This document shows, piece after piece, positions 51,464-63,999 of a stretch of DNA of 64,000 bases (its first letter is position 1; each line of letters starts with the position of its first letter). The notes beneath the pieces are model-generated. The model had not been told where the DNA came from. It made no database searches and was given only the letters and a program-made list of their open reading frames with translations. A program made the translations under genes and the position numbers. The stretch is from a virus (taxonomy: Duplodnaviria > Caudoviricetes), in the IMG/VR virus record IMGVR_UViG_3300017763_003980; one strand, written 5' to 3'.

Positions 51464-54133
51464 TTATTCTCCAAAATCAAATAAACTGTTAAACGTATTG
51501 TTACGCTTTGTATCTTCTAACGGATAGTTTAGCACACCAATTAAGTTGTCTAGCTTATTATCAATAATAGTTTCTGCCATTGCTGCATCGTCAAATGGCA
51601 GTTCTTTGAACCAATCAGGTATATGAAGCTCATCTGTTGGATAAGCAACACTTGTATACCCTAGTGGGTTCTGTTTTAATTTACAAACAATAACTTTCAT
51701 ACCGTCAACAATTTCTTGCGAATACTTGTCGCCATTCATGCGTTTAAGTGTATTCCAGTTAATGCTTGCTCGTACATGACCAGGCATATTTGCCTTGCCT
51801 TGTTTTTCTTCTAGTCGCTGATAGTGACCAATTTTATTAGCACGTTTCGGCGAACCCTTTTCCCAACCAGGACGTTCACTAAACTCTTTACGGAATACAG
51901 TAATACGTTCTAGTACATCTTCTACTGGCTTGTCTGTTAGTACCATTAGTAATAGTTCACTTAAAAACTCTTGCATAAACACAGGTGTATCTGATCTACG
52001 CAAGTCTAAGCCCATAGCTTTTACTTTTCCAGCTTTGCCATCAACGTCAGTTCTAAACCCTTCGTTGTCAATTACTAGTGCTGCATAACGTTTCTTAGTA
52101 ATATATAATCCGCTTTCTGCAACAATTTCTCTACCAGCTGCAATAACTTCTGCACGACTTGCTGGACAGTGAAATGCTTGGGCCATAAATTTTGTAAACG
52201 TACTATCTACAGCCTCGCTTACTTGATCATAAAGCTTAATAGCATTTTCTTTTGACCATGGAATTTTACCTGAATCAATATCAGCTTTAAGTGTTGGGTA
52301 TGCACTAAAATATACAGAGTCAGTGTCACCATAAATTACTGCTTCACCTGTGTGATCATACTTACCTGCAATGACGTTGTTAGCTTCTGCACTCATATGC
52401 TTAACAATAGTTCGACCACTTAGTGTGGTTGATTGACCAATTCTTTTATCAAAAAATCTACAGCCTGGATTTAAAATAGCACCATACAAACTATTCAAGT
52501 TAATCTTCTTAACAAGTTGACGTTTGTCCCAGTATTCAATTTCAATAGAATTGCCTGCGTCTTTTGCTTTTTTAAGTTGTGCTTGTAGATCTTTACGTTC
52601 ACTATACCAACGCTTTAGAAGTCCAGGAATAACACCTTCGTATTCTGTTGTAAAAATTGTGCCATTTGAACTAAGCATCCAAGGTTTATTACTATCAAAG
52701 ATTACTTTGTATATTTCAGCACCACTCATTACCTTTGATTCGCCGTTCTCAAAGTCAACTGTAAGTGCAACATCTTTGCGTTGCTCCATAACAGCTTCGT
52801 ATTCTTCTGTACTAAAACGCCCTTCCCAACTACCTGCAAATGACTTTTTCTTTAGACCCATATCTTCTGTTACACGAGCATCTGAAATATCAGGACGTAT
52901 TTGTCCAACAATAGTTGCCGGATCCATATTCAATGCACGAATTACACTAGGATATAGACTGTTCAAGTCCATACTTGCAATCCATTTGTGCAGTCCTTTT
53001 TTCGGAAATGCCACATACGCACCTGCGGCTTGTGTGTTTTCATCATCACGTTTTGCACGATTAGGAACTTGCATGCCTCGATGATGTGCTTCGTTGACAA
53101 TGGCTTGTTCTGTAACTGCTACGGCCCCCATAGTGGTTTGTAGCAAAACAGTGTTTGCATGAGCAAGTTCGTTACTAAGATCAATAAATCTTAGTTTTTT
53201 GTCCAGCTTGTCCAGTAGTGCGGTATCTTGTATGTTGTATTCGATGAACTTTCTAAAGTCATTGTTGTACAATGCGTCCAAAGTACCTTCATAAGGGACC
53301 TTGTTCTCGCCAACTTCGATTTCGCCAATGGCATCAAGTCTATATGTGTGTCTTTCTTCATATGTATATTTACGATATAAATTCAAACTATCTAAATGCA
53401 CTCTGCCTATTAGGTCAAAGGTTTGTGCTATTTTACCATACTTTTCATATTCACGCTTCTTAGGAAGTTGTCCCCACAAGCAAAATCTACGTGTGTCATC
53501 TTTGCTTAGTACACGAGCAGTTCTGTTTACAGTATAAGGAATATCATAACCTTCGCTGTTCCAACCTGATAAGATATCACTATCTTCAATCAGTGTCAAG
53601 AAAGTGTCAATCATGTCACCTTCTTTTTCAAACAACATTACATTGTCGATACCTTCAAGTTCTTTTTTAGCTTCGTCCATAGTAAGTGTCTTAGGAGGAA
53701 CAGCCAAGCATACCATTGTTTCTAACCATTGCAAGTATACTGAGATACTTGTAATAGGCATAAAGGGATCACTTGGATCAGCAAAGCCTCTCTCTGGATC
53801 AAAGTCAGTCTCAATATCAAAGAATGCAATGTTTAGTTTAGGTGCATCTTGATTAAGATAGTTTTCACTTAAACATTGAAATATAGGATTAATGTCGCTT
53901 TCGAATAGTTGCTTGTCTCTATTAATAGCAACTTCTTTGCGGAAGTCTTTTGTGTTTTTGCAAACAATACGACTTAGTGGGTCACCGTATATACTTTTAT
54001 ACTTGCCACGTTGGTCTTTGTAATAAAAAGTATACTTTACCGGATACTCTGTAAAATGTCTTTTGCCTTCTCGACGTTCAACAGCTCTAATAATATCAGA
54101 ATCTCTATCGAACATTGCGTCCACGTAACTCAA
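51464..54133 (-). CDS. polB: family B DNA polymerase (T4 gp43-like)
   Basis: Exo motifs FFDIETD, WNSEGYD, YNIQD; pol motifs DLNSLYPS, KINLNSLYG, YGDTDS, KKRY; TTG start with GAGGAGG RBS. Confidence 0.95.
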   Translation of the reverse strand: MSYVDAMFDRDSDIIRAVERREGKRHFTEYPVKYTFYYKDQRGKYKSIYGDPLSRIVCKNTKDFRKEVAINRDKQLFESDINPIFQCLSENYLNQDAPKLNIAFFDIETDFDPERGFADPSDPFMPITSISVYLQWLETMVCLAVPPKTLTMDEAKKELEGIDNVMLFEKEGDMIDTFLTLIEDSDILSGWNSEGYDIPYTVNRTARVLSKDDTRRFCLWGQLPKKREYEKYGKIAQTFDLIGRVHLDSLNLYRKYTYEERHTYRLDAIGEIEVGENKVPYEGTLDALYNNDFRKFIEYNIQDTALLDKLDKKLRFIDLSNELAHANTVLLQTTMGAVAVTEQAIVNEAHHRGMQVPNRAKRDDENTQAAGAYVAFPKKGLHKWIASMDLNSLYPSVIRALNMDPATIVGQIRPDISDARVTEDMGLKKKSFAGSWEGRFSTEEYEAVMEQRKDVALTVDFENGESKVMSGAEIYKVIFDSNKPWMLSSNGTIFTTEYEGVIPGLLKRWYSERKDLQAQLKKAKDAGNSIEIEYWDKRQLVKKINLNSLYGAILNPGCRFFDKRIGQSTTLSGRTIVKHMSAEANNVIAGKYDHTGEAVIYGDTDSVYFSAYPTLKADIDSGKIPWSKENAIKLYDQVSEAVDSTFTKFMAQAFHCPASRAEVIAAGREIVAESGLYITKKRYAALVIDNEGFRTDVDGKAGKVKAMGLDLRRSDTPVFMQEFLSELLLMVLTDKPVEDVLERITVFRKEFSERPGWEKGSPKRANKIGHYQRLEEKQGKANMPGHVRASINWNTLKRMNGDKYSQEIVDGMKVIVCKLKQNPLGYTSVAYPTDELHIPDWFKELPFDDAAMAETIIDNKLDNLIGVLNYPLEDTKRNNTFNSLFDFGE

Positions 54134-54783: not shown

Positions 54784-54812
54784 ATTATACTACAGTTTTA
54801 AGGGGTTGTCAA
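54784..54812 (-). promoter_or_regulatory. consensus sigma70 promoter of the replication operon
   Basis: Perfect TTGACA-N17-TATAAT. Confidence 0.8.
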
Positions 54813-55637
54813 CTACTTTTTTGAGTTTAATGCTGCCCAGAGTTGGGACTTTATGGATTCATTAGTATCTTTATGTTTTTGTTTACGGGGAATGGTTTTT
54901 GTTTTATCTTTATGACCGCCTGCGGCACCACTTTTTCGTAGGTCATTCATATACTGAGCATTTGGATCTCTTGCTTTGATAGGTTTTTGTTTGTTCTTTT
55001 TATTTGCTGTTAATTTGTCAACAGCGCCACCAACTGCTTTGGCTGCTAATCCTCTAGCTGCCATACCTGCTATTGCTGGTAATATTTCATCTAGCTCTTG
55101 TGATATTGCTTCAATTAAAGAATCTTGATCAAAATTTAACGATTCTTTTTGACCTTGTTGCGCCTTGTATTCATCTTTATAATCTTTAGATGTCTTAGGC
55201 TTTGGCTTGGCTGTAGGTACTTTTGGCTCTTTAGCTTTATCGTATTCGTCTTTAGCAGCCTTAAACGCTGGACTTAGTTTATGAGGATCTTTATAGCCTG
55301 CTTTTGCTCCAGTTTTAAAAGAGCTGGCACCGGACTTGACTGCAGCTTTTGCCGCTTTAGCACCAGTTTTAATAGTTTTCTTAAAATTATCGAACTTTTC
55401 GCCTTCATTAAGTTGAACGCCTGCTAGTTTAGCAAAATCACTTATACTATAATCTTTATCTACTGGCATAGTGCCTTCTGGAATATCAGAAACACTTTCT
55501 TCTAAATGATTTACTGTTAAATCTTCAGATCCAACGGATGCTTTTCCTGAAGCCATTTCAGTAAGCTTGCGTATATCTTCTGCAGGATCTGCAGGATCAA
55601 TTTCAAATAGTTTTTGCTGGAGAGCATGATAGTCCAT
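54813..55637 (-). CDS. modular Lys/Ala-rich putative internal head protein
   Basis: Alternating acidic and basic segments separated by xxE sites (LNE, QKE, LDE, TNE). Confidence 0.55.
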   Translation of the reverse strand: MDYHALQQKLFEIDPADPAEDIRKLTEMASGKASVGSEDLTVNHLEESVSDIPEGTMPVDKDYSISDFAKLAGVQLNEGEKFDNFKKTIKTGAKAAKAAVKSGASSFKTGAKAGYKDPHKLSPAFKAAKDEYDKAKEPKVPTAKPKPKTSKDYKDEYKAQQGQKESLNFDQDSLIEAISQELDEILPAIAGMAARGLAAKAVGGAVDKLTANKKNKQKPIKARDPNAQYMNDLRKSGAAGGHKDKTKTIPRKQKHKDTNESIKSQLWAALNSKK

Positions 55638-56353
55638 TATCTCTTGCCTGAAGCTTTCGCGGCATGTACTGCTTTACGGTGTGCAGCTGATTTGAACTTT
55701 TTCTTACCTTCTAATTTTAAATGTAGTTCTTCTTTGTAAGATTCTTTCTTTTTTGATAACCGGTTCATAGCTTTTTTTGCTCTAGCCGCCTTGTCCATAT
55801 GACCATGATAGAAATCTGACTTCATATCCCCAACCTCTTCAGGTGATTTTCCGCTTGTGTCTATTCCTGACTTATCGAAATTTGCAAGGTCTGATTTTTT
55901 ATATTGTTTCTTGAGCTTTCGCTTCATCATCACTTTACCGGCACCTTTAAATGGACCTTCGTTAGTTGATTCATTAGTTGCATTGCAATTACAATGCTTG
56001 CATGTCGGAGGACATCCACAGTCTTCTGCTTTAACATCTGCGCCACAGCATTTGTCTGAACAGTGTGTGTCTTTTTTTGCTTCGCCTACTACAACAGCTT
56101 CGTCTGCTAGTCCACTTTCCTCATAGTCCATATGATGATAAACACTACCGAGCATGTCTGCTGCTTTGGTAATTTTGGATTGTACCCAACCTTCTAAGCC
56201 TTCTGCTTCACTTACACCTTTGAGCATGTCATGTAGCTTAATTGCATATTTGGCAGACTTATAAAGGTCAGCACGAGCCATTTGTACTTCGTGATCACGT
56301 TCGGCAATATCTGCTAATTCGCCTAATCCTTCAGTAATCTCTTTTTCTCTCAT
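55637..56353 (-). CDS. modular putative internal head protein with Cys-rich module
   Basis: MREKEITE N-terminus; HCSDKCCG...CGCPPTCKHCNC. Confidence 0.55.
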   Translation of the reverse strand: MREKEITEGLGELADIAERDHEVQMARADLYKSAKYAIKLHDMLKGVSEAEGLEGWVQSKITKAADMLGSVYHHMDYEESGLADEAVVVGEAKKDTHCSDKCCGADVKAEDCGCPPTCKHCNCNATNESTNEGPFKGAGKVMMKRKLKKQYKKSDLANFDKSGIDTSGKSPEEVGDMKSDFYHGHMDKAARAKKAMNRLSKKKESYKEELHLKLEGKKKFKSAAHRKAVHAAKASGKR

Positions 56354-56378
56354 CTTACAGTTCCCGTTATTCTATATG

Positions 56379-56385
56379 TATTTAT
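56379..56385 (-). promoter_or_regulatory. late-promoter-like box ATAAATA
   Basis: Intergenic, upstream of 56353. Confidence 0.5.
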
Positions 56386-56591
56386 CGTTTAATAGCTTTG
56401 CCGCCCATAACGTTGGCCTTCATATCTAGTGCGTTTTTAGCAGTTCCGTCTGCTTTAGTAGCTTGGGGAGCCTTAGGTGCACCGTACTTACCTTTTTTAG
56501 TTTTAACAGTTGGATTTGCTACTACTGCCATACTACTTGCGTTAGTGCCGCCTGCTGTTGCTTCTTCGTCTAATATTTCGTACATTTTCAT
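56382..56591 (-). CDS. small basic putative internal protein
   Basis: MKMYEILDEE N-terminus followed by a Lys/Ala/Gly-rich body. Confidence 0.65.
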   Translation of the reverse strand: MKMYEILDEEATAGGTNASSMAVVANPTVKTKKGKYGAPKAPQATKADGTAKNALDMKANVMGGKAIKR

Positions 56592-56596
56592 AATAA

Positions 56597-56603
56597 TATT
56601 TAT
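56597..56603 (-). promoter_or_regulatory. late-promoter-like box ATAAATA, 5 nt before ATG 56591
   Basis: ATAAATA-TTATT-ATG. Confidence 0.55.
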
Positions 56604-56608
56604 CCTTA

Positions 56609-56899
56609 TTATTTTCTTTTGCCACGAAATCTACGTACATGACCTGTGTAGAATATCATAGTATACCAAGGATTGTGCCTATACATTTTACGAGTATATT
56701 CCCAAGCTACATTATCTTGGTCTACCCATACTACATGATAACCTCTCCATCTACGTGAAGGATACCATTCAATACTACCGCCGTCTTTAATTAATTTTTC
56801 TAGTGTCCAAAAGTAACAGTTGTTCTTGCTAGTAAATAGTCTCATAGGCCAAAACCAAAAAAAGACTGCCATAAGCAGTCCTGTGTTTAGTAACTTCAT
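56609..56899 (-). CDS. hypothetical Trp-rich protein
   Basis: 96 aa ORF, ATGA coupling. Confidence 0.65.
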   Translation of the reverse strand: MKLLNTGLLMAVFFWFWPMRLFTSKNNCYFWTLEKLIKDGGSIEWYPSRRWRGYHVVWVDQDNVAWEYTRKMYRHNPWYTMIFYTGHVRRFRGKRK

Positions 56900-57627
56900 G
56901 ATAAAAATTTATTCTCTTTAAGATACTGATATATCTTAAAATGTCCTTCTCTATTTGGATGGTGTCCATCTGGCCACATTATAGACTCTTTAGTATATAG
57001 TTCCCATAAATTATTTTGTGCATATATTCTTTTTACAGCTTTTTTGTTTGTGTTGTGTTTACTGATAGTACTAAGATGATGTACAAACATTACATCGTGT
57101 TGCTTACTATTAGGTACAAGTAATTCTAATATACTAGGTATTGCTATTTTAAGTTGTGTGTCTTTTAGTAAATCACTTGTTACTTTAGATAATCCTCCTA
57201 TTAAATATACCTGACCAAGTATTTTATTGTTTATACGAGATATATCAGCAATAAATTCACGTAAATTATTGTTATGCATCTCAACATAATCTTGGTACGA
57301 GTAAGCTTTATCCCATATTTTGCCTCTCTCAATATTACGAAGAGTATCGGTTACTATAATAAAGGTTGCATCATATGGTTTATATGGTTTAGAATCATCT
57401 TCAACTTCTTTATCTAGTAAGTGTTTCTTTCCTTGCATTCTTATTTGATAATGTATAGTTTTGAGACTAGCCCCAGGTACAGAAACATTTTTTACCTCAT
57501 GATTATCTTGTGTTAGATATTCTTCTAAACCTTTATGGGCAACAGCATCATGTCTTCCTTCTAATAGACGATTATATTCTTTCCATTCGCCGCAGCCCCA
57601 ACTATCCCCTGCTAACAATATTCTCAT
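56896..57627 (-). CDS. SGNH/GDSL hydrolase-like protein
   Basis: ILLAGDSW, NVSVPGAS, DGHHPN (DxxH). Confidence 0.7.
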   Translation of the reverse strand: MRILLAGDSWGCGEWKEYNRLLEGRHDAVAHKGLEEYLTQDNHEVKNVSVPGASLKTIHYQIRMQGKKHLLDKEVEDDSKPYKPYDATFIIVTDTLRNIERGKIWDKAYSYQDYVEMHNNNLREFIADISRINNKILGQVYLIGGLSKVTSDLLKDTQLKIAIPSILELLVPNSKQHDVMFVHHLSTISKHNTNKKAVKRIYAQNNLWELYTKESIMWPDGHHPNREGHFKIYQYLKENKFLS

Positions 57628-57632
57628 ACTAG

Positions 57633-57639
57633 TAATTAT
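57633..57639 (-). promoter_or_regulatory. late-promoter-like box ATAATTA, 5 nt before ATG 57627
   Basis: Same spacing as the other sites; no SD. Confidence 0.4.
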
Positions 57640-59612
57640 TATTTTTTAGAACGACCGCTCTTCATGTTGGCACACCAGTGATACATTTTACGCTTTTCAC
57701 CACTTGCGCCTTTGGCACGTTTGCGTAGATCAGTTACTGAGCCTTTACAACTAGCACCAGACTTTTTAACTCTACCTGGACGACTTTTGCCTTTTTTCTT
57801 ACCGTCAGCAAAGTTTTCAGTCATGCCTAGTTCTGCTCTTTTAATCCAATCACGTTCGTATTCTACTGGAATAAAGTCTTCGAGTTCTTCGTCTTTATAT
57901 TCTGAACCCATCCAATCAAATACCATAGCAGGATCAAACTGCATTTTTTCACTTGCTTTGTAGTATGCTACGTAAGGATCTAAGCCGTTTTTAATTAACT
58001 TCATAGCAAGTAATCTAATGTCTAGATATTCATCTTCAATGTCTGTAAATGCACGACTTGTCTTGCCTGTAGTATTAGTTTGTTGATACTTGTCAATTGC
58101 TTTACTAGTATCCTTGCTCATATTGCCTAATGCAACCGCTGTGTCTTTAGACATGCCAACAGGACTGTTTTCTTTTAGCTCTGGATGATATTTCCAGTGA
58201 ACATTTTTTGCATCTTTACTAACTGACTTACCGTCAACTTGAACTTCAATAGGATATTTCTTTTTAGGATCATTATACCAATAGTACGAATCATAACTGC
58301 CATCAGCATTACTACGTATAACAAGTCCTCTTGTATATTCGTCATCGTCTGCTTGCAAAACTATATTTTTACCATTTGGTAATTTTAAATCTGCATCAAA
58401 TTTAACTTTTTTTATATCACCACTATGTGCATCTTCGTCTACGTGTGCATCATCACCCTTACTACCGGCGTCTTGTGTTTTGTAGCCTGCTTTTTTAAGG
58501 CCTTTCTTAAGGTGTTTCTTTTCTTTTTCGCCACCGAAAGGAACAACCATTACATCAGGTTCATCTCTGTTGTCGCTCTTTTTTGCGTTAGATAGATTAG
58601 AAATTGTTTTGCCTACACGTAGAAAATCGTATGCTGTGTCAGCTTTTGTAAGAAAAGTATTTTTTGGGTTTTTAAAATGATGTGCTTCAAAAACTTCTAG
58701 TATTTGTTCTAGTGTATAAGGTAACCTAGCAACATCTGCTTCTTTAATACCCAGCATTTGTAGTGCAGTATATCTATGATGTCCGTTAACAATTCTATTT
58801 TTGCTATCAACTATAATTGGATTGTACTCGCCTGCAACAATATTGTCTACTTGCTTTTTAAAGTTTTCTACTATACGTTCCTCTTGTACTGGTATAAGTT
58901 TTTTTACGTTTACTGTTTCAAGAGTATGTTTGATATTTTCAAGTTGCTTGTTTTTAATTTGTGGTAGTTCATTGCGATTGTAATTTGCTTTAAGTTTTTT
59001 TGTTTTCTTTTTAGGTTTTTTATCTAATGATAGCTTTTTTACATTCATGTATTCGCCACCAACAGGTACATCCTTTGTTGCATTTTGTTTTGTTACAATG
59101 CCAACACCGTATTCTTCAATACTGTCTTTTACTTTATTTTTTACATTTTTAGCTTTACCACGTCTGTCCGGATTAGGATCATTCTTTCTTTTTCTTTTCA
59201 CAGCGTTACTTATAGCTTTTTTACCACCACTTGATCTAAGACTTGCTGCCTTAGACTTGCTTAAACATTTTGGTTTGCCTTCACCTGGTTTAGAATCTCC
59301 GCATTTTCCAATGCGTTCGCCTTTTGAATTGTAACGATCCCACCCGCCGCCGCCAGCGCCGCCTTTTTTACCTTTGCCAAACCATGCACGTAGATCTTCT
59401 TTTACTAGGATTCCATCGTTGTCCACTGTATGACCATCAGGAATTGGTTTGCATTTTTGATCTGTATTACAAAAGTATTCGCCTTCTTTGCATTGTGCTT
59501 CTGCTTCATTCTTTACACAATTAGGCACACGTTTGCCAAACATGGTTTTCATGCCCTTTTTCTTGTAGCCCTTCCAGCAACGTGTTCCTTCTTTAAAATC
59601 GTCGAACTTCAT
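57639..59612 (-). CDS. large modular (polyprotein-like) protein with ParB/Srx-like domain and basic Cys-containing modules
   Basis: MKFDDFKE N-terminus; CWKGY..PNCVK; PIIVDSKNRIVNGHHR; C-terminal basic module with HWCANMK. Confidence 0.6.
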   Translation of the reverse strand: MKFDDFKEGTRCWKGYKKKGMKTMFGKRVPNCVKNEAEAQCKEGEYFCNTDQKCKPIPDGHTVDNDGILVKEDLRAWFGKGKKGGAGGGGWDRYNSKGERIGKCGDSKPGEGKPKCLSKSKAASLRSSGGKKAISNAVKRKRKNDPNPDRRGKAKNVKNKVKDSIEEYGVGIVTKQNATKDVPVGGEYMNVKKLSLDKKPKKKTKKLKANYNRNELPQIKNKQLENIKHTLETVNVKKLIPVQEERIVENFKKQVDNIVAGEYNPIIVDSKNRIVNGHHRYTALQMLGIKEADVARLPYTLEQILEVFEAHHFKNPKNTFLTKADTAYDFLRVGKTISNLSNAKKSDNRDEPDVMVVPFGGEKEKKHLKKGLKKAGYKTQDAGSKGDDAHVDEDAHSGDIKKVKFDADLKLPNGKNIVLQADDDEYTRGLVIRSNADGSYDSYYWYNDPKKKYPIEVQVDGKSVSKDAKNVHWKYHPELKENSPVGMSKDTAVALGNMSKDTSKAIDKYQQTNTTGKTSRAFTDIEDEYLDIRLLAMKLIKNGLDPYVAYYKASEKMQFDPAMVFDWMGSEYKDEELEDFIPVEYERDWIKRAELGMTENFADGKKKGKSRPGRVKKSGASCKGSVTDLRKRAKGASGEKRKMYHWCANMKSGRSKK

Positions 59613-59803
59613 TTTTTTGACTTATTGCCCCAATTCTTTGCGCCTACTTTTCGACAGCGTACTAATGCTCCACTTGCATATGCACTTGGCCAAACTTTGT
59701 AGCGACTTTTAACTTTGTTATAGCAAGCATCTTTTTCACCTGCAGCTTCGTCAAATTCTGCTTCTGTCATAAGTTGTTGTTCTGTTACTTCATTTACTTT
59801 CAT
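59609..59803 (-). CDS. small basic putative internal protein
   Basis: MKVNEVTE N-terminus; KDACYNKVKSRYKVWPSAYASGALVRCRK. Confidence 0.7.
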   Translation of the reverse strand: MKVNEVTEQQLMTEAEFDEAAGEKDACYNKVKSRYKVWPSAYASGALVRCRKVGAKNWGNKSKK

Positions 59804-59804
59804 T

Positions 59805-60050
59805 TCACCACACCTTCTTAATATGATATTCTATTGGTTTCAAAAATTTTAATTCGTTTCTATTATTATCTAAATCTTTAAAAATAATGTGCTTTGGTGT
59901 TACCTTTACAAGTTTCTTTGCTTTGTATTTAACCTGTTTAGTAGATTCAGTTCTAGTTCCGTCAGCATGAACCAATGTATCATTAGATACTGTTAAAATT
60001 AGTTCGTATTCTTCTTTAGTAACTCTTTGCCACCAAGTTTTTAAGCTCAT
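59805..60050 (-). CDS. hypothetical protein
   Basis: 81 aa ORF, coupled. Confidence 0.65.
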   Translation of the reverse strand: MSLKTWWQRVTKEEYELILTVSNDTLVHADGTRTESTKQVKYKAKKLVKVTPKHIIFKDLDNNRNELKFLKPIEYHIKKVW

Positions 60051-60256
60051 TACTTCCTTCCTCTAAAAGTTGCTCCTGTCATATAAGGTTTACTAAACCA
60101 AAGCTCAAACCATTCCTTATCTCCAGGCTTTATATTGTTTTTCTTTTCCTTCTTCTTTAGCTCGTTAGCAGTTTTGCTCATGTTTTCTAGTGTATATTCT
60201 GTATAGCCTTTGTATTCATTTACACCTGCTAGCTCTTTAAGTCGTTCGATATTCAT
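60050..60256 (-). CDS. small hypothetical protein
   Basis: MNIERLKELAGVNE; IKPGDKEWFELWF. Confidence 0.7.
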   Translation of the reverse strand: MNIERLKELAGVNEYKGYTEYTLENMSKTANELKKKEKKNNIKPGDKEWFELWFSKPYMTGATFRGRK

Positions 60257-61269
60257 TTTTTCTTCTTTAAACGTTTTCTAAGTTTATCACTTATATCTGC
60301 TGGATGATCTGGATTGTCTTTGTCTAATGAGTAATATCCTGGTCCCCTAAGTCCCTTTAATACACGCCCAATACCTTCTTGAATATCTTCATCGCTAATA
60401 GTGTAGTATCTATTATTACGTGTTTTAATTTTCTTACCACTTAGTTGTTTTAGTATGTAGCTTAACTTTTCTACATCATCCTCTTCACGAGCAAAACGTT
60501 CTATTTCTTGTTGTAAGTGATTAACTAACGCACTTTTGTCTAAAACAAGATCGCCTTCGTTAACATTATCTTCTTTAGCAAGTTTTGTTGCTGTTGCATA
60601 CATTACTGCATCCGCATCTTTGCCATAACGCTTTTTGAATCCGCCTTTAGCTTTCTTCATTCCTTTGACAATACGTTCTTTTTCTTTTTCTTCGCCTTTA
60701 CTAAGTTCACGCTCGGTAAGTCCCATACCCTTACGTACTGCGTCATATAATGCATTAGCTAATGACTGATCGACTACACCCTGTTTAAATGTATCAAAGT
60801 CATCTGACATCGCAGACGCCCGCATTTTGCTAGCACTCATACCTTCAGCACCATCTGCGTCAGGATCACGTTCGCCTGCACTAACAACACTAATATTATT
60901 AAAGTTATAGTCCTTGCCGTTGTATTTGGTAATAAGATTTTTAAAGTCTTCAACTCTATCACTACCTGCTACATATGTAATACTTGTGTAGCCCATTGAT
61001 TCTAGCTTTTGTAGTGCTTTTATAATTGTGTTTACTTCACTATCTCCAACAGTTACATTAGGAAAAAACTTTGTTGCAAATTTTAATTTAGTTTGAAAAT
61101 CTAAAGGATCTGTTTTAGGTTTTTGTGTGTGGGTTATAAAAAGGAAAGGATCGCCAGGCTGAGATGCTACAACGTCAACAAGTTTTTTATGTCCAATAGT
61201 AGGAGGATTCATTCTTCCGAATGCTAGTGATGCAGCTTTTTCAGCTTCGTATAATTCCCTGAGTAGCAT
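60253..61269 (-). CDS. cytidylyltransferase-like nucleotidyltransferase with appended basic modules
   Basis: AFGRMNPPTIGH (HIGH), VAGSDR, SAGERDPD, GMSASKMR (KMSKS-like). Confidence 0.8.
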   Translation of the reverse strand: MLLRELYEAEKAASLAFGRMNPPTIGHKKLVDVVASQPGDPFLFITHTQKPKTDPLDFQTKLKFATKFFPNVTVGDSEVNTIIKALQKLESMGYTSITYVAGSDRVEDFKNLITKYNGKDYNFNNISVVSAGERDPDADGAEGMSASKMRASAMSDDFDTFKQGVVDQSLANALYDAVRKGMGLTERELSKGEEKEKERIVKGMKKAKGGFKKRYGKDADAVMYATATKLAKEDNVNEGDLVLDKSALVNHLQQEIERFAREEDDVEKLSYILKQLSGKKIKTRNNRYYTISDEDIQEGIGRVLKGLRGPGYYSLDKDNPDHPADISDKLRKRLKKKK

Positions 61270-61599
61270 TTAGTATGCTCCGCATTCAATCATTTTCATT
61301 TCTTCGCCATATACCTTGTTAATGCACTCATCTCGGTCTTCTAGCTTAAAAATTTTTTCTCTTTTACCTAGTTTAAATTTATTGCAATATAACTCCATAG
61401 CTTCGTCAACTATAGGTCCTAATAACTTTTGTGGTGCAATACTTTGTTGCCTACCATAAGCATCTTTCATTTGCATAATGCAAGGAAACATTTTCTTTCT
61501 ATAAAACATAGGATCATTACGCATAAAGATAGAAAGATCGTCTACCACATCAAATGGCATACGAGCTTCTTCTGGTTTTGTAAACTCGTCTATACGCAT
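61270..61599 (-). CDS. hypothetical protein
   Basis: 109 aa ORF, MRIDEF N-terminus. Confidence 0.7.
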   Translation of the reverse strand: MRIDEFTKPEEARMPFDVVDDLSIFMRNDPMFYRKKMFPCIMQMKDAYGRQQSIAPQKLLGPIVDEAMELYCNKFKLGKREKIFKLEDRDECINKVYGEEMKMIECGAY

Positions 61600-61600
61600 T

Positions 61601-62194
61601 TTACCACTTCCTACATGACCAGTAACGTGCCTTAGTGCGTGGACCTGGATTGTCGCAGTTATGTCTTGCTCTAAAACTTCTACGTGCTTTAGGATTATTT
61701 TTTCTAATACGCATGGACTTGCCTTTTACACTTGATCCACCATGGCCAAAGTTAACTTTTTTAACATTACCAGTCTTTGGATCCTTAACGTAAACTTTAA
61801 ACTTTTTTACGTCACCGGCCATTGGCTTTCCCAATTTTACTTTACGTCCTTGATACTCTGCTTCGTCCATTGGATCGTCATCTTCGTTATACCAAAGCAT
61901 ACCATATTCTTCATAAAACTCGTCATCGTCATCATAAGTTTCTTCGTCAATTGGGTCTGTCATATCTGTACTAATTTCGATATCAAAGTCTTCGAAGCCT
62001 GATTCAAACATATAGTTTGCTAAACGATTAGCATACTCTGTTGCTTCATCTTCGTCAAGTAATCTGTCTAAAGGTATTTCAATTACTGTTGCACCTTGCT
62101 CTGATTCATACACCTCGTTATTAGGAAGTATAGACTCGTCTAGCTTAGTTATACTCTCGTCTTTTTCCATTACTATTCTTACAAAGTGTTCCAT
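61601..62194 (-). CDS. acidic protein with C-terminal basic Cys/His module
   Basis: Asp/Glu-rich N-half; after MDE: KLGKP...VKKVNFG...FRARHNC...ARYWSCRKW. Confidence 0.7.
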   Translation of the reverse strand: MEHFVRIVMEKDESITKLDESILPNNEVYESEQGATVIEIPLDRLLDEDEATEYANRLANYMFESGFEDFDIEISTDMTDPIDEETYDDDDEFYEEYGMLWYNEDDDPMDEAEYQGRKVKLGKPMAGDVKKFKVYVKDPKTGNVKKVNFGHGGSSVKGKSMRIRKNNPKARRSFRARHNCDNPGPRTKARYWSCRKW

Positions 62195-62203
62195 ATTATT
62201 TCC

Positions 62204-62545
62204 TCAATGATTCATTACTATTGAATTTACAGTTCCGTCAGTATATGTTATTTGGGCTTTTAGCCATACATAATTTCCGGTAAAATTACTAATAGTACTT
62301 CCTGTACTATTTGATAGTGTTATACTGTCAACTTGAAACCAATCACCGTCTACAGGTGTAGTAGTTAATGTAGCTTCTATTTTCATTGTTCCAGTAAATC
62401 CAGTATAATTATATTGGACAGTATGCAAGCCGTCGCTACGACCGTAATATCCGTCTCCTTTGAAATGAGAGCTTTCTACTGCTACAGAAGTACTATCTCC
62501 TGGGTGGGTGTTTGCTGATAAAATTATTTCACTATTACTGCTCAT
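62204..62545 (-). CDS. beta-rich putative virion protein
   Basis: Start moved to ATG 62545, which lies 5 nt after an ATAAATA box. Confidence 0.65.
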   Translation of the reverse strand: MSSNSEIILSANTHPGDSTSVAVESSHFKGDGYYGRSDGLHTVQYNYTGFTGTMKIEATLTTTPVDGDWFQVDSITLSNSTGSTISNFTGNYVWLKAQITYTDGTVNSIVMNH

Positions 62546-62549
62546 ATAA

Positions 62550-63251
62550 CTATTTATCAATAGTTGGAGGCATATGTAATAATTTGTATACACCGCGTAT
62601 AGCATGTCCTATTAACATATGTACAATTGATAGCACCTTTTCATCACGTACATGTAAGTAAAACCCTCCCATATGTAGATTATCGTCAATACATTGCAAT
62701 GCTTTATCACCTATCCTAGACTTATCTCTATTTGCACGTAACCAATTAGCAAAGTCAGGTGATATCTTTTCATCTTTAAGCATTATTCGAAATGGAAACT
62801 CTGGAGGGCGATCAACTATAATCGTATCATGTTCTAATAAATGTTTTCCTCTAGAATTTGGTTTCCATATATTTTCTAAAGTATATTGAATACGATTAGT
62901 AATGTTATCCAATAAATTATCATCGTTAGTATAGATAGATAAACTAGTTCCGGTTTCGACTCTAACTTTAAAATTTCCGTTTTGATTCTTTAATATTAAG
63001 TATAAGTTCTTAGCATCTAAGTAATGATTCATAGGTACTTCACGTTCTGTTCTAAAGAATGTTTGTACTAATGGCTGACCATTACGATAGTTACTAGCAA
63101 ATTCGTCTAGCTTATCTCTTGTATAAGAAAGATTTTTACTTTTTTGAAGTTCGGCTCTAAAAATATGATTAAGTTCATTATTTAAGGATATTTTATAAAG
63201 ATACTTTTTATAAAAAAGTTTTTTTGTTTCATGCAGATTCGGTGATTTCAT
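62550..63251 (-). CDS. hypothetical protein
   Basis: 233 aa ORF overlapping the ClpA stop. Confidence 0.75.
   Translation of the reverse strand: MKSPNLHETKKLFYKKYLYKISLNNELNHIFRAELQKSKNLSYTRDKLDEFASNYRNGQPLVQTFFRTEREVPMNHYLDAKNLYLILKNQNGNFKVRVETGTSLSIYTNDDNLLDNITNRIQYTLENIWKPNSRGKHLLEHDTIIVDRPPEFPFRIMLKDEKISPDFANWLRANRDKSRIGDKALQCIDDNLHMGGFYLHVRDEKVLSIVHMLIGHAIRGVYKLLHMPPTIDK
62551..62557 (-). promoter_or_regulatory. late-promoter-like box ATAAATA, 5 nt before ATG 62545
   Basis: ATAAATA-GTTAT-ATG. Confidence 0.55.
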
Positions 63252-63999
63252 CTTCTACACAATCCAACTGTATCTCTTTATCACGATAATCGATAATGAG
63301 TGAACCGCCATTTTTCAGTTTACCAAATAACATTTCTCTTGCTAGTTTACGTTTGATATCTTTATCGATTACTCTTTGTAAAGGTCTTGCACCCATTTTA
63401 GGATCAAATCCTTTATCTACTAAGTAATCTAATGTATCGTCTGTAATAGTTAGTGCAATATCTTTATCTTTAACCATGTCCTTTAGCTCAACAAGGAATT
63501 TGCCAACAATTTTCATCATTATCTCTTTGCTTAGTTTAGCAAAAGTAATTGTACCATCAAGTCTATTTCTAAATTCTGGTGCAAAGAACTGTTTAAGATC
63601 AGTGTCTTCATACTGTTGTTCTAGTTCTCTTGTAAAGCCAATTGAATTTTGTTCAGCTTTATGTGAACCTAAGTTAGTTGTTAAGATAAGTGTACAATTA
63701 CGTGCATCAGCTACTTTACCATTGGATCCGGTTACTTTACCATTATCCATTAGTTGCAATAAAATTTGAGAAACATCCGGGTGTGCTTTTTCAATTTCGT
63801 CAAGTAGCAGTACACAGTTAGGTGATTCCTGTAATTTAGTAATTAGGATGCCGTTATTCTCTTCATAACCTACATATCCTGGAGGCGACCCAATAAGTTT
63901 TGCTACACTATGTCGCTCCTGGTACTCACTCATATCAAAACGTATAAGTTTAACACCAAGATTTTTTGCAAGTTGTTTTGCAGTTTCAGTTTTACCTGT
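63229..63999 (-). CDS. clpA: ClpA/ClpB-type AAA+ unfoldase, C-terminal part (5' truncated by the window)
   Basis: TGKTETAK Walker A at the window edge, RFDMSEY, LIGSPPGYVG, LLDEIEKAHPDV, PEFRNRLD, GARPLQR. Confidence 0.9.
   Translation of the reverse strand, partial: TGKTETAKQLAKNLGVKLIRFDMSEYQERHSVAKLIGSPPGYVGYEENNGILITKLQESPNCVLLLDEIEKAHPDVSQILLQLMDNGKVTGSNGKVADARNCTLILTTNLGSHKAEQNSIGFTRELEQQYEDTDLKQFFAPEFRNRLDGTITFAKLSKEIMMKIVGKFLVELKDMVKDKDIALTITDDTLDYLVDKGFDPKMGARPLQRVIDKDIKRKLAREMLFGKLKNGGSLIIDYRDKEIQLDCVEDEITESA

Follow-up and report, generated by a model that had tools for sequence, protein, structure and literature searches.

In the jumbo phages phiKZ, 201phi2-1 and SPN3US, the cleavage motif of head proteins has small residues at P3, the third position before the cut. 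For the T4 protease gp21 and the leader of internal protein (IP) III, P3 is hydrophobic, P2 is free and Glu is obligatory at P1, where Asp is not tolerated; capsid-targeting sequences (CTS) of about 10 residues have established roles in targeting and processing, and Asp at P1 blocks (PMC9026906). Polyvalent proteins, including DdrB of phage P1, are multi-domain and shuffled; they are predicted to be packaged and delivered, and their processing takes place either ahead of packaging or after it (Iyer et al. 2017, PMC5512222). Here we analyse positions 54813-62194 of a 64,000-nucleotide (nt) stretch of viral DNA (IMG/VR record IMGVR_UViG_3300017763_003980), hereafter the window. An earlier note on this DNA had read the locus as a cluster of internal-head polyproteins, cut after Glu and delivered as cargo. 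A literature search returned no paper describing such a design of leaders and junctions in a cargo array, and none on Syn9 gp114, on DUF5872/DUF6321 or on CTS-like leaders of cyanophages.

A putative head-cargo locus of a jumbo phage

On balance we favour reading 54813-62194 as a head-cargo locus of T4 type, carried by a marine jumbo phage of the T4 superfamily that is uncultured and has a genome of ~350 kb. Leaders would direct its precursors to the head, where the prohead protease would cleave each junction between modules. Leaders, junction signature, module shuffling, a protease in relatives, late motifs and virion homologues partly support the polyprotein-cargo interpretation of the earlier note; it does not extend to three of the 12 open reading frames (ORFs), which have no leader and are probably not cargo. 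In the ORF list of the window the locus is packed with 12 minus-strand ORFs, given here from the upstream side together with the gene that precedes them (lengths in amino acids, aa; pI, isoelectric point):

62204-62545, minus: 113-aa beta-rich protein, first gene of the probable late operon, just outside the cluster; short form of the listed ORF 62204-62605
61601-62194, minus: 197-aa protein; acidic N-domain (pI 4.1), junction MDE at residues 109-111, basic two-Cys C-module (pI 11)
61270-61599, minus: 109-aa protein; leader MRIDEF
60253-61269, minus: 338-aa protein; leader MLLRELYE, predicted HIGH-type nucleotidyltransferase at residues 9-186, small modules after LTE186, VNE238 and IQE298
60050-60256, minus: 68-aa basic protein; N-terminus MNIERLKELAGVNE, a basic-LAG-V/I motif like that of the scaffold C-terminus, then NE
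59805-60050, minus: 81-aa ORF; no leader, synteny-conserved
59609-59803, minus: 64-aa protein; leader MKVNEVTE, MTE14, two-Cys DUF5872-like basic module
57639-59612, minus: 657-aa polyprotein; leader MKFDDFKE, seven supported junctions, after E8, E72, E167, E306/309, E393, E481 and E599
56896-57627, minus: GDSL/SGNH-like hydrolase; no leader, weak Lipase_GDSL match, position varying among related arrays
56609-56899, minus: 96-aa membrane ORF; hydrophobic N-terminus, no leader
56382-56591, minus: 69-aa protein; leader MKMYEILDE, copy of a capsid segment (cleavage site and N-arm), Lys-rich tail
55637-56353, minus: 238-aa protein; leader MREKEITE, acidic helical domain, 8-Cys/2-His module, basic tail (pI 10.1)
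54813-55637, minus: 274-aa protein; own conserved 27-aa N-terminus, LAG motif and LNE78, 196-aa basic body (pI 9.9)

The pI lies between 8.7 and 10.2 in nine of the 12 cluster proteins, and the leader-bearing ones contain 11-18% Lys. Most cluster proteins gave no significant match in Pfam, NCBIfam or PDB sequence searches. A search with the 657-aa protein collected 80 related viral loci from IMG/VR, and the array is present with its gene order kept in most of them. The source phage was placed through the family-B DNA polymerase of the window (51464-54133), which is 41-50% identical to its closest relatives, those of Phosso/Atu_ph07/Rak2-like jumbo myoviruses of 350-490 kb. Completeness ratings of related IMG/VR contigs (64-210 kb) are 16-60%, and the genomes would therefore measure ~350 kb.

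Leaders at the N-termini

A leader of ~10 residues ending in (I/L/V)-x-Glu opens seven of the 12 ORFs and is kept in their orthologues. The seven N-termini that the earlier note had quoted are those listed above for the 238-, 69-, 657-, 64-, 68-, 338- and 109-aa proteins, and all of them were confirmed. The pattern reads Met, basic, hydrophobic, x, acidic, hydrophobic, x(1-2), Glu, and it is kept in six unrelated families (69-, 64-, 657-, 338-, 109- and 238-aa); in the 109-aa family, Met-basic-I/L-x-Glu-Phe is retained by 29 collinear homologues. The 274- and 197-aa proteins have N-termini of a different kind. The three ORFs with no leader look like inserted passengers: the GDSL-like gene is a probable non-cargo insertion, and the 96- and 81-aa ORFs are probably not cargo either.

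Comparison with the sequences of IPI, IPII/III, gp24 and gp61.1 places these leaders in the same class as the verified propeptides of T4. In the T4 genome (NC_000866), IPII and IPIII begin MKTYQEFIAE, IPI begins MKTFKEF and is cut after ITE, gp24 begins MAKINELLRE, and gp23 is cut after LTE; the internal proteins have a pI of 8.9-9.5. Within the window, a regular expression for the leader found five of the 12 cluster genes and four of the 73 other ORFs. Across the 80 related loci it matched 144 of 348 dereplicated ORFs of cluster families (41%) against 87 of 803 others (11%; p=3.5e-30), the others including many further leader-bearing genes from the same arrays. Once dereplicated, the ORFs with a leader number 246 and form 53 similarity groups; a single group holds 126 members joined through common modules. 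The median pI of their mature parts is 9.5, that of other ORFs 6.0. We considered the leader as an artefact of translation starts and rejected this, given that the identical motif marks internal junctions.

The same site between modules

Behind the leaders, the proteins are chains of unrelated modules, as the earlier note had proposed: the ends of high-scoring segment pairs pile up at the junctions, and confident islands in an AlphaFold2 (AF2) model are split by low-confidence linkers. The xxE linker tripeptides that it had listed all occur in the cluster proteins. Junctions were analysed for 14 modules, each represented by its own profile. For all non-redundant occurrences we recorded the preceding residues; the background frequencies were 7.3% for Glu, 7.5% for Asp, 30% for hydrophobic residues at P3 and 2.2% of positions for hydrophobic-x-Glu. 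Every well-sampled module has hydrophobic-x-Glu before it, either as a gene start or inside a fusion. In these profile-aligned contexts Glu stands at 75-100% of junctions and Asp at approximately none, which is the T4-type signature with its strict Glu. P3 is hydrophobic in 49/56, 36/37, 23/30, 20/20, 15/15 and 9/9 contexts per module family (background 30%), and in 54/54 internal contexts.

The 58-aa module at the C-terminus of the 657-aa protein (57642-57815, minus; pI 11, two Cys) illustrates how narrow this conservation is. P1 is Glu in all 56 contexts and never Asp, P3 is Val, Ile, Leu, Met or Phe in 49 of the 56, and P2 and P4-P8 are near-random at 3.4-3.9 bits. The module also occurs in ~6,000 protein clusters of 103-2000 aa from public metagenomes, almost always at the C-terminus. 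In an independent set of 120 database clusters sampled from these, P1 was Glu in 86 of 86 unique contexts, P3 was the sole other constrained position, and the module was C-terminal in 100 of 119 proteins. Similar sites with Asp near zero precede the DUF6321-like, DUF5872-like, Cys-rich and mid-657 modules, the 69-aa and 68-aa bodies, the 238-aa N-domain and the C-module of the 197-aa protein. In the latter protein the junction Glu is kept in 37/38 contexts and P3 is hydrophobic in 36/37. Its C-module (61604-61861, minus) is also found in pelagiphage podoviruses and siphoviruses, in Roseobacter phages ('HVA1 family') and in a Nitrosopumilaceae spindle-shaped virus.

Could base composition account for these motifs? 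In an AT-rich genome (G+C 29-39%), Lys/Glu-rich proteins might start with MK(I/L)xE for translation efficiency and contain xxE commonly, and hydrophobic-x-Glu is indeed frequent in the background. We regard this explanation as very improbable. Internal junctions, where no translation starts, conserve the motif equally well. Asp is excluded though it is as frequent as Glu, and the enrichment of leaders was obtained against neighbouring genes of the same genomes.

Module-level homology comparison further showed that modules are shuffled, and that gene fission and fusion fall exactly at the junctions. Separate leader-led genes in other phages begin exactly at the junctions 167/168, 309/310 and 599/600 of the 657-aa protein, and the fusions of S-SM1 and Syn9 have an internal FQDFQE in place of the MKFDDFKE that opens the protein of the window phage. 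In this sense a leader and an internal junction are interchangeable. An ATGA overlap links the 64-aa gene to the 657-aa gene. In the 338-aa protein, which matches phrog_3041/395, segment pairs likewise end at the junctions. The AF2 model of the 657-aa protein has a mean predicted local distance difference test (pLDDT) score of 61, with confident islands at residues 90-150, 340-385, 525-570 and 620-655. Eight of the 11 hydrophobic-x-Glu sites lie in or beside low-confidence linkers and the other three within the ParB-like domain. The predicted products of cutting at the supported sites are leaders of acidic pI (4.4-5), some domains that are likewise acidic, and basic modules 40-196 residues long (pI 9.3-11).

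Interchangeability also invites another explanation, namely that the proteins are packaged and lose only the N-terminal leader, the internal sites being leader remnants of gene fusion and the multi-module proteins staying intact in the head. Modules move with their leaders, so a fusion would leave a remnant at each junction, and the T4 internal proteins lose only their N-terminal propeptide. We nevertheless consider this unlikely. P1 Glu is invariant and never Asp, and P3 is hydrophobic in all 54 internal contexts, yet P2 and P4-P8 are near-random; that two positions are kept amid diverged upstream sequence argues for continuing selection on the site. Moreover, T4 Alt and the head proteins of phiKZ and SPN3US have multiple cut sites.

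Head genes of related phages

The protease that the earlier note had presumed exists in this lineage. The window genome itself is available only as this 64-kb stretch, from which an exact 42-mer had no match in IMG/VR or in metagenome contigs, and protease, scaffold and capsid genes were read from related contigs. In each of the three largest, which span 146-210 kb at 41-60% completeness, a T4-type prohead protease scores over the Pfam cut-off for Peptidase_S77 (in L083 at 1465-2103). Its neighbours are an acidic core protein, a gp22-like scaffold and a gp23-like capsid gene. No S77 protease was found in five smaller related fragments (16-23% complete).

These head genes give two new findings. 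The first regards the 69-aa family, whose hidden Markov model matches residues 37-58 of three related capsid proteins (E 2e-7). This segment comprises the predicted cleavage site and the first 17 residues of the mature protein. Judged by the alignment, the 69-aa protein copies the cleavage region of the capsid protein, and T4 gp61.1 has the same design with respect to gp23. The second finding is a motif, basic-Leu-Ala-Gly-(Leu/Ile), that lies at most two residues from the C-terminus of the scaffold in 3/3 cases (L083 2114-3214, L085 2079-3170 and L084, reverse strand). The scaffolds of Syn9 and T4 are without it. By sequence match, several cargo proteins carry this C-terminal motif of the scaffold: usually followed by x-Glu, LAG opens the 68-aa family, stands at residue 69 of the 274-aa family and recurs in several other cargo families, with 89 occurrences where 21.6 are expected.

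A bolder proposal is that the array uses two address labels in addition to the T4-type leader. The LAG motif might attach cargo to the capsid protein in the manner of the scaffold, similarly to the cargo-loading peptides of encapsulins, and the 58-aa module might act as a removable DNA- or core-binding handle. Together they could constitute a general, programmable protein-packaging system of abundant ocean phages; we offer this tentatively and consider it rather doubtful.

Late transcription

The array lies under late-promoter motifs, and the following sites were identified:

62551-62557, minus: late-promoter-like ATAAATA, 5 nt before the ATG at 62545 of the 113-aa gene; same site in the syntenic loci L064, L022, L009, L082 and L030
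56597-56603, minus: ATAAATA, 6 nt before the ATG of the 69-aa gene; position kept in L022, L003 and L054
56379-56385, minus: late-promoter-like ATAAATA, 25 nt before the 238-aa gene
54784-54812, minus: perfect sigma-70 promoter TTGACA-17-TATAAT, which opens the early DNA-polymerase operon and delimits the late array on its downstream side

ATAAATA is the core of the T4-type late promoter, and it is strongly depleted in the window (11 observed vs 44 expected). In the 238-aa family it occurs in 21 of 26 unique upstream regions, against 78 of 1125 in the background (7%). Of the exact T4 late promoter TATAAATA the window contains just two copies, against 13.5 expected, and the cluster none. The depletion of both words is consistent with avoidance of a functional late-promoter word. 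Among the best sigma-70 matches (>=10/12 positions) none falls in the array. The site at 62551-62557 is the probable start of a late operon, and at the level of motifs the array appears to be expressed late. With ATAAATA 5-6 nt from the ATG of the 113- and 69-aa genes, late transcripts would be nearly leaderless. The 113-aa protein matches phrog_13657 (E 9.5e-14) and phrog_14467, 'virion structural protein' (E 2e-6), and its orthologues begin at the equivalent Met. The operon behind the promoter at 54784-54812 contains an 86-aa regulator-like gene, a 93-aa ORF and the DNA polymerase, an arrangement repeated in L022, L082 and L030.

On the upstream side (62550-63999), a 233-aa ORF and a ClpA-like ATPase adjoin the late array. 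In the related loci L064, L022, L009 and L030, the ClpA-like gene (~745 aa) comes after a DnaJ-like gene, behind sigma-70-like promoters. ClpA is known from subgroup 2.2 jumbo phages (PMC7824862).

Homologues in virions

Homologues of two of the families have been found in virions. Mass spectrometry of S-SM1 virions detected T4-GC119 with 13 peptides and the 'cytidylyltransferase' T4-GC190 with 25 peptides, besides gp21 (Sullivan et al. 2010, PMC3037559 Table S8). SSM1_115, annotated GC 119, holds four modules from three window genes, one of them at 93% identity: the 64-aa protein aligns with its residues 324-366. Its candidate junction sites include IQE323 and FQE380. The cytidylyltransferase was also found in virions of S-CREM2, and it is often detected in cyanophage virions (PMC10665884). 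The phAPEC6 virion paper holds nothing on cytidylyltransferase.

Several points weigh against a packaged and fully processed cargo. Direct virion data are confined to cyanophage homologues rather than this phage or close relatives, Syn9 gp114 was undetected in Syn9 virions (PMC3037559 Table S8), and the T4-GC119 proteins of cyanophages have no clear leader at their start. The protease is seen only in related contigs, and some array modules occur in viruses without a T4-type protease. Additionally, the neighbours of the cluster are replication genes and not the head module, and in the one AF2 model the tendency of sites to fall in linkers does not reach significance by itself (p=0.15). Finally, homologous sequences are kin and their contexts are not independent, so part of the junction conservation could be inherited.

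Alternatively, the proteins might never be packaged. They could be late cytoplasmic factors that condense DNA or modulate assembly, or decoys that time the protease, with leaders serving regulation or turnover. The ClpA/DnaJ-like genes and the DNA polymerase operon that flank the array would fit such roles, the capsid-mimicking 69-aa protein could be a competitor, and the absence of gp114 from the Syn9 data points the same way. However, homologues of two families are present in purified S-SM1 and S-CREM2 virions, and the IP genes of T4 are likewise scattered outside its head module. The alternative is further opposed by the position of the ClpA and DnaJ genes, behind sigma-70 promoters and outside the late unit. 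We give this alternative slightly less weight than the loss of the leader alone.

Identity of the modules

The modules of the 657-aa protein are a CW-KGY module, a Cys knuckle, a DUF6321-like module, a ParB/Srx-like domain, three modules without an assigned fold and the C-terminal 58-aa module. A Foldseek search of its model against the PDB returned nothing at E below 0.1. The ParB/Srx-like assignment of residues ~200-306 comes through PHROG only (phrog_620, E 5.9e-9), with an AF2 confidence of 53-77. Pfam ParB_N did not match the 657-aa protein, and a relative, P0120, gave E 4e-4, below the cut-off. Head-packaged polyvalent proteins, P1 DdrB among them, are known to contain ParB/Srx-like domains (PMC5512222).

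The N-domain of the 338-aa protein is predicted to be a HIGH-signature nucleotidyltransferase of PPAT/NMNAT-like type. Its AF2 model (pLDDT 89.5) shows a PPAT/NMNAT-like Rossmann fold with the leader outside it and matches PPAT 1o6b (E 2.7e-6), and the profile matches NMNAT 1f9a (E 1.3e-3). In the alignment G26 and H27, the GH of the HxGH-type motif, are invariant, as are N21 and P22. The domain is 41-48% identical to the cyanophage 'cytidylyltransferase' T4-GC190.

Five small basic modules have exactly two invariant Cys and one invariant Trp each, and one further module has 8 Cys and 2 His; no solved fold matched the small Cys modules. The module of the 64-aa protein scores 16.2 bits against Pfam DUF5872, under the cut-off of 27.5, and matches phrog_727 at E 9e-25. 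In relatives, the 58-aa module is fused behind NT5C nucleotidase, pterin-4a dehydratase and sigma-70 region 4, and also behind Cu/Zn superoxide dismutase (P0067), Pol-beta nucleotidyltransferase and ParB_N domains. Among cultured phages, neither the 58-aa module nor the 68-aa protein has a match, and apart from the modules matched in cyanophages, most other array families are without a counterpart there.

Proposed mechanism and implications

Under the head-cargo reading, the array genes would be transcribed late, and an acidic leader of ~8-14 residues, of the T4 capsid-targeting/propeptide type, would bring each precursor into the scaffolding core of the prohead. The S77 protease would then cut after hydrophobic-x-Glu, both behind the leader and between modules. 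In this way acidic leaders and pro-domains would be parted from the very basic (pI 9.3-11) two-Cys mini-domains, which would remain with the DNA, and a few enzymes, such as the PPAT/NMNAT-like nucleotidyltransferase and the ParB/Srx-like domain, would be freed inside the head. We infer targeting, cleavage, head retention and ejection, as well as the functions of the modules. For the small basic modules, charge neutralisation or binding of DNA is the simplest and most likely role. An effector role of the enzymes is possible, and injection and anti-defence functions are speculation.

If this reading is true, the DNA of abundant marine jumbo phages and, via shared modules, of T4-like cyanophages is delivered together with a large protein repertoire that is rapidly shuffled. 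The scale would be considerable, with at least 53 leader-bearing families in 80 contigs and ~6,000 clusters carrying a single one of the modules. Many 'hypothetical' genes of viromes would gain a role, and the 'non-structural' enzymes reported in cyanophage virions would be explained. Moreover, a leader combined with hydrophobic-x-Glu junctions would become a sequence rule for predicting virion cargo from metagenomes.

Comparison with known systems

The array resembles the gp21-processed proteins IPI, IPII, IPIII and Alt of T4 in its leaders of ~10 residues ending in hydrophobic-x-Glu and its small basic bodies (pI ~9 and 13-16% Lys). In both cases the genes lie outside the head module and vary in content, and the lineage has a T4-type S77 protease. 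Unlike the T4 internal proteins, the array comprises at least 10 genes in one conserved, apparently late unit. Many of its proteins string together 3-8 shuffled modules, with a junction site for every module; there are modules with invariant Cys pairs, and no sequence similarity to the bodies of the T4 proteins. The 69-aa family has its own parallel in T4 gp61.1 (54 aa, unstudied), which likewise combines a leader, a copy of the N-terminal segment that the capsid protein has after cleavage and a Lys-rich tail. However, gp61.1 lies beside the primase, unlike the 69-aa gene, and each of the two copies the capsid protein of its own phage.

Multiple cuts after Glu, as predicted for the array, are made by a gp21-related protease in many inner-body and ejection proteins of phiKZ, 201phi2-1 and SPN3US, which have no sequence relation to the array and belong to a different group of jumbo phages. 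Polyvalent proteins are alike in that ParB/Srx-like and nucleotidyltransferase domains recur. They use their own zincin-like peptidase or MuF/portal fusions, whereas the array consists mostly of tiny basic domains and its predicted cutter is the prohead protease. Of the hallmarks of polyvalent proteins, scans with Pfam, PHROG and NCBIfam found neither the zincin-like peptidase nor a MuF/portal fusion, only the ParB-like and nucleotidyltransferase domains.

True homologues are found in cyanomyoviruses. Together with HTVC008M, the cyanophages that have T4-GC119/190 are the closest carriers in culture. T4-GC119 (SSM1_115, Syn9 gp114, P-SSM4_160) and T4-GC190 contain the DUF6321-like, DUF5872-like, CW-KGY and 338-mid modules and the nucleotidyltransferase. 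In the cyanophage T4-GC119 the modules are fused in one protein, whereas here they are distributed over three genes, each with a leader.

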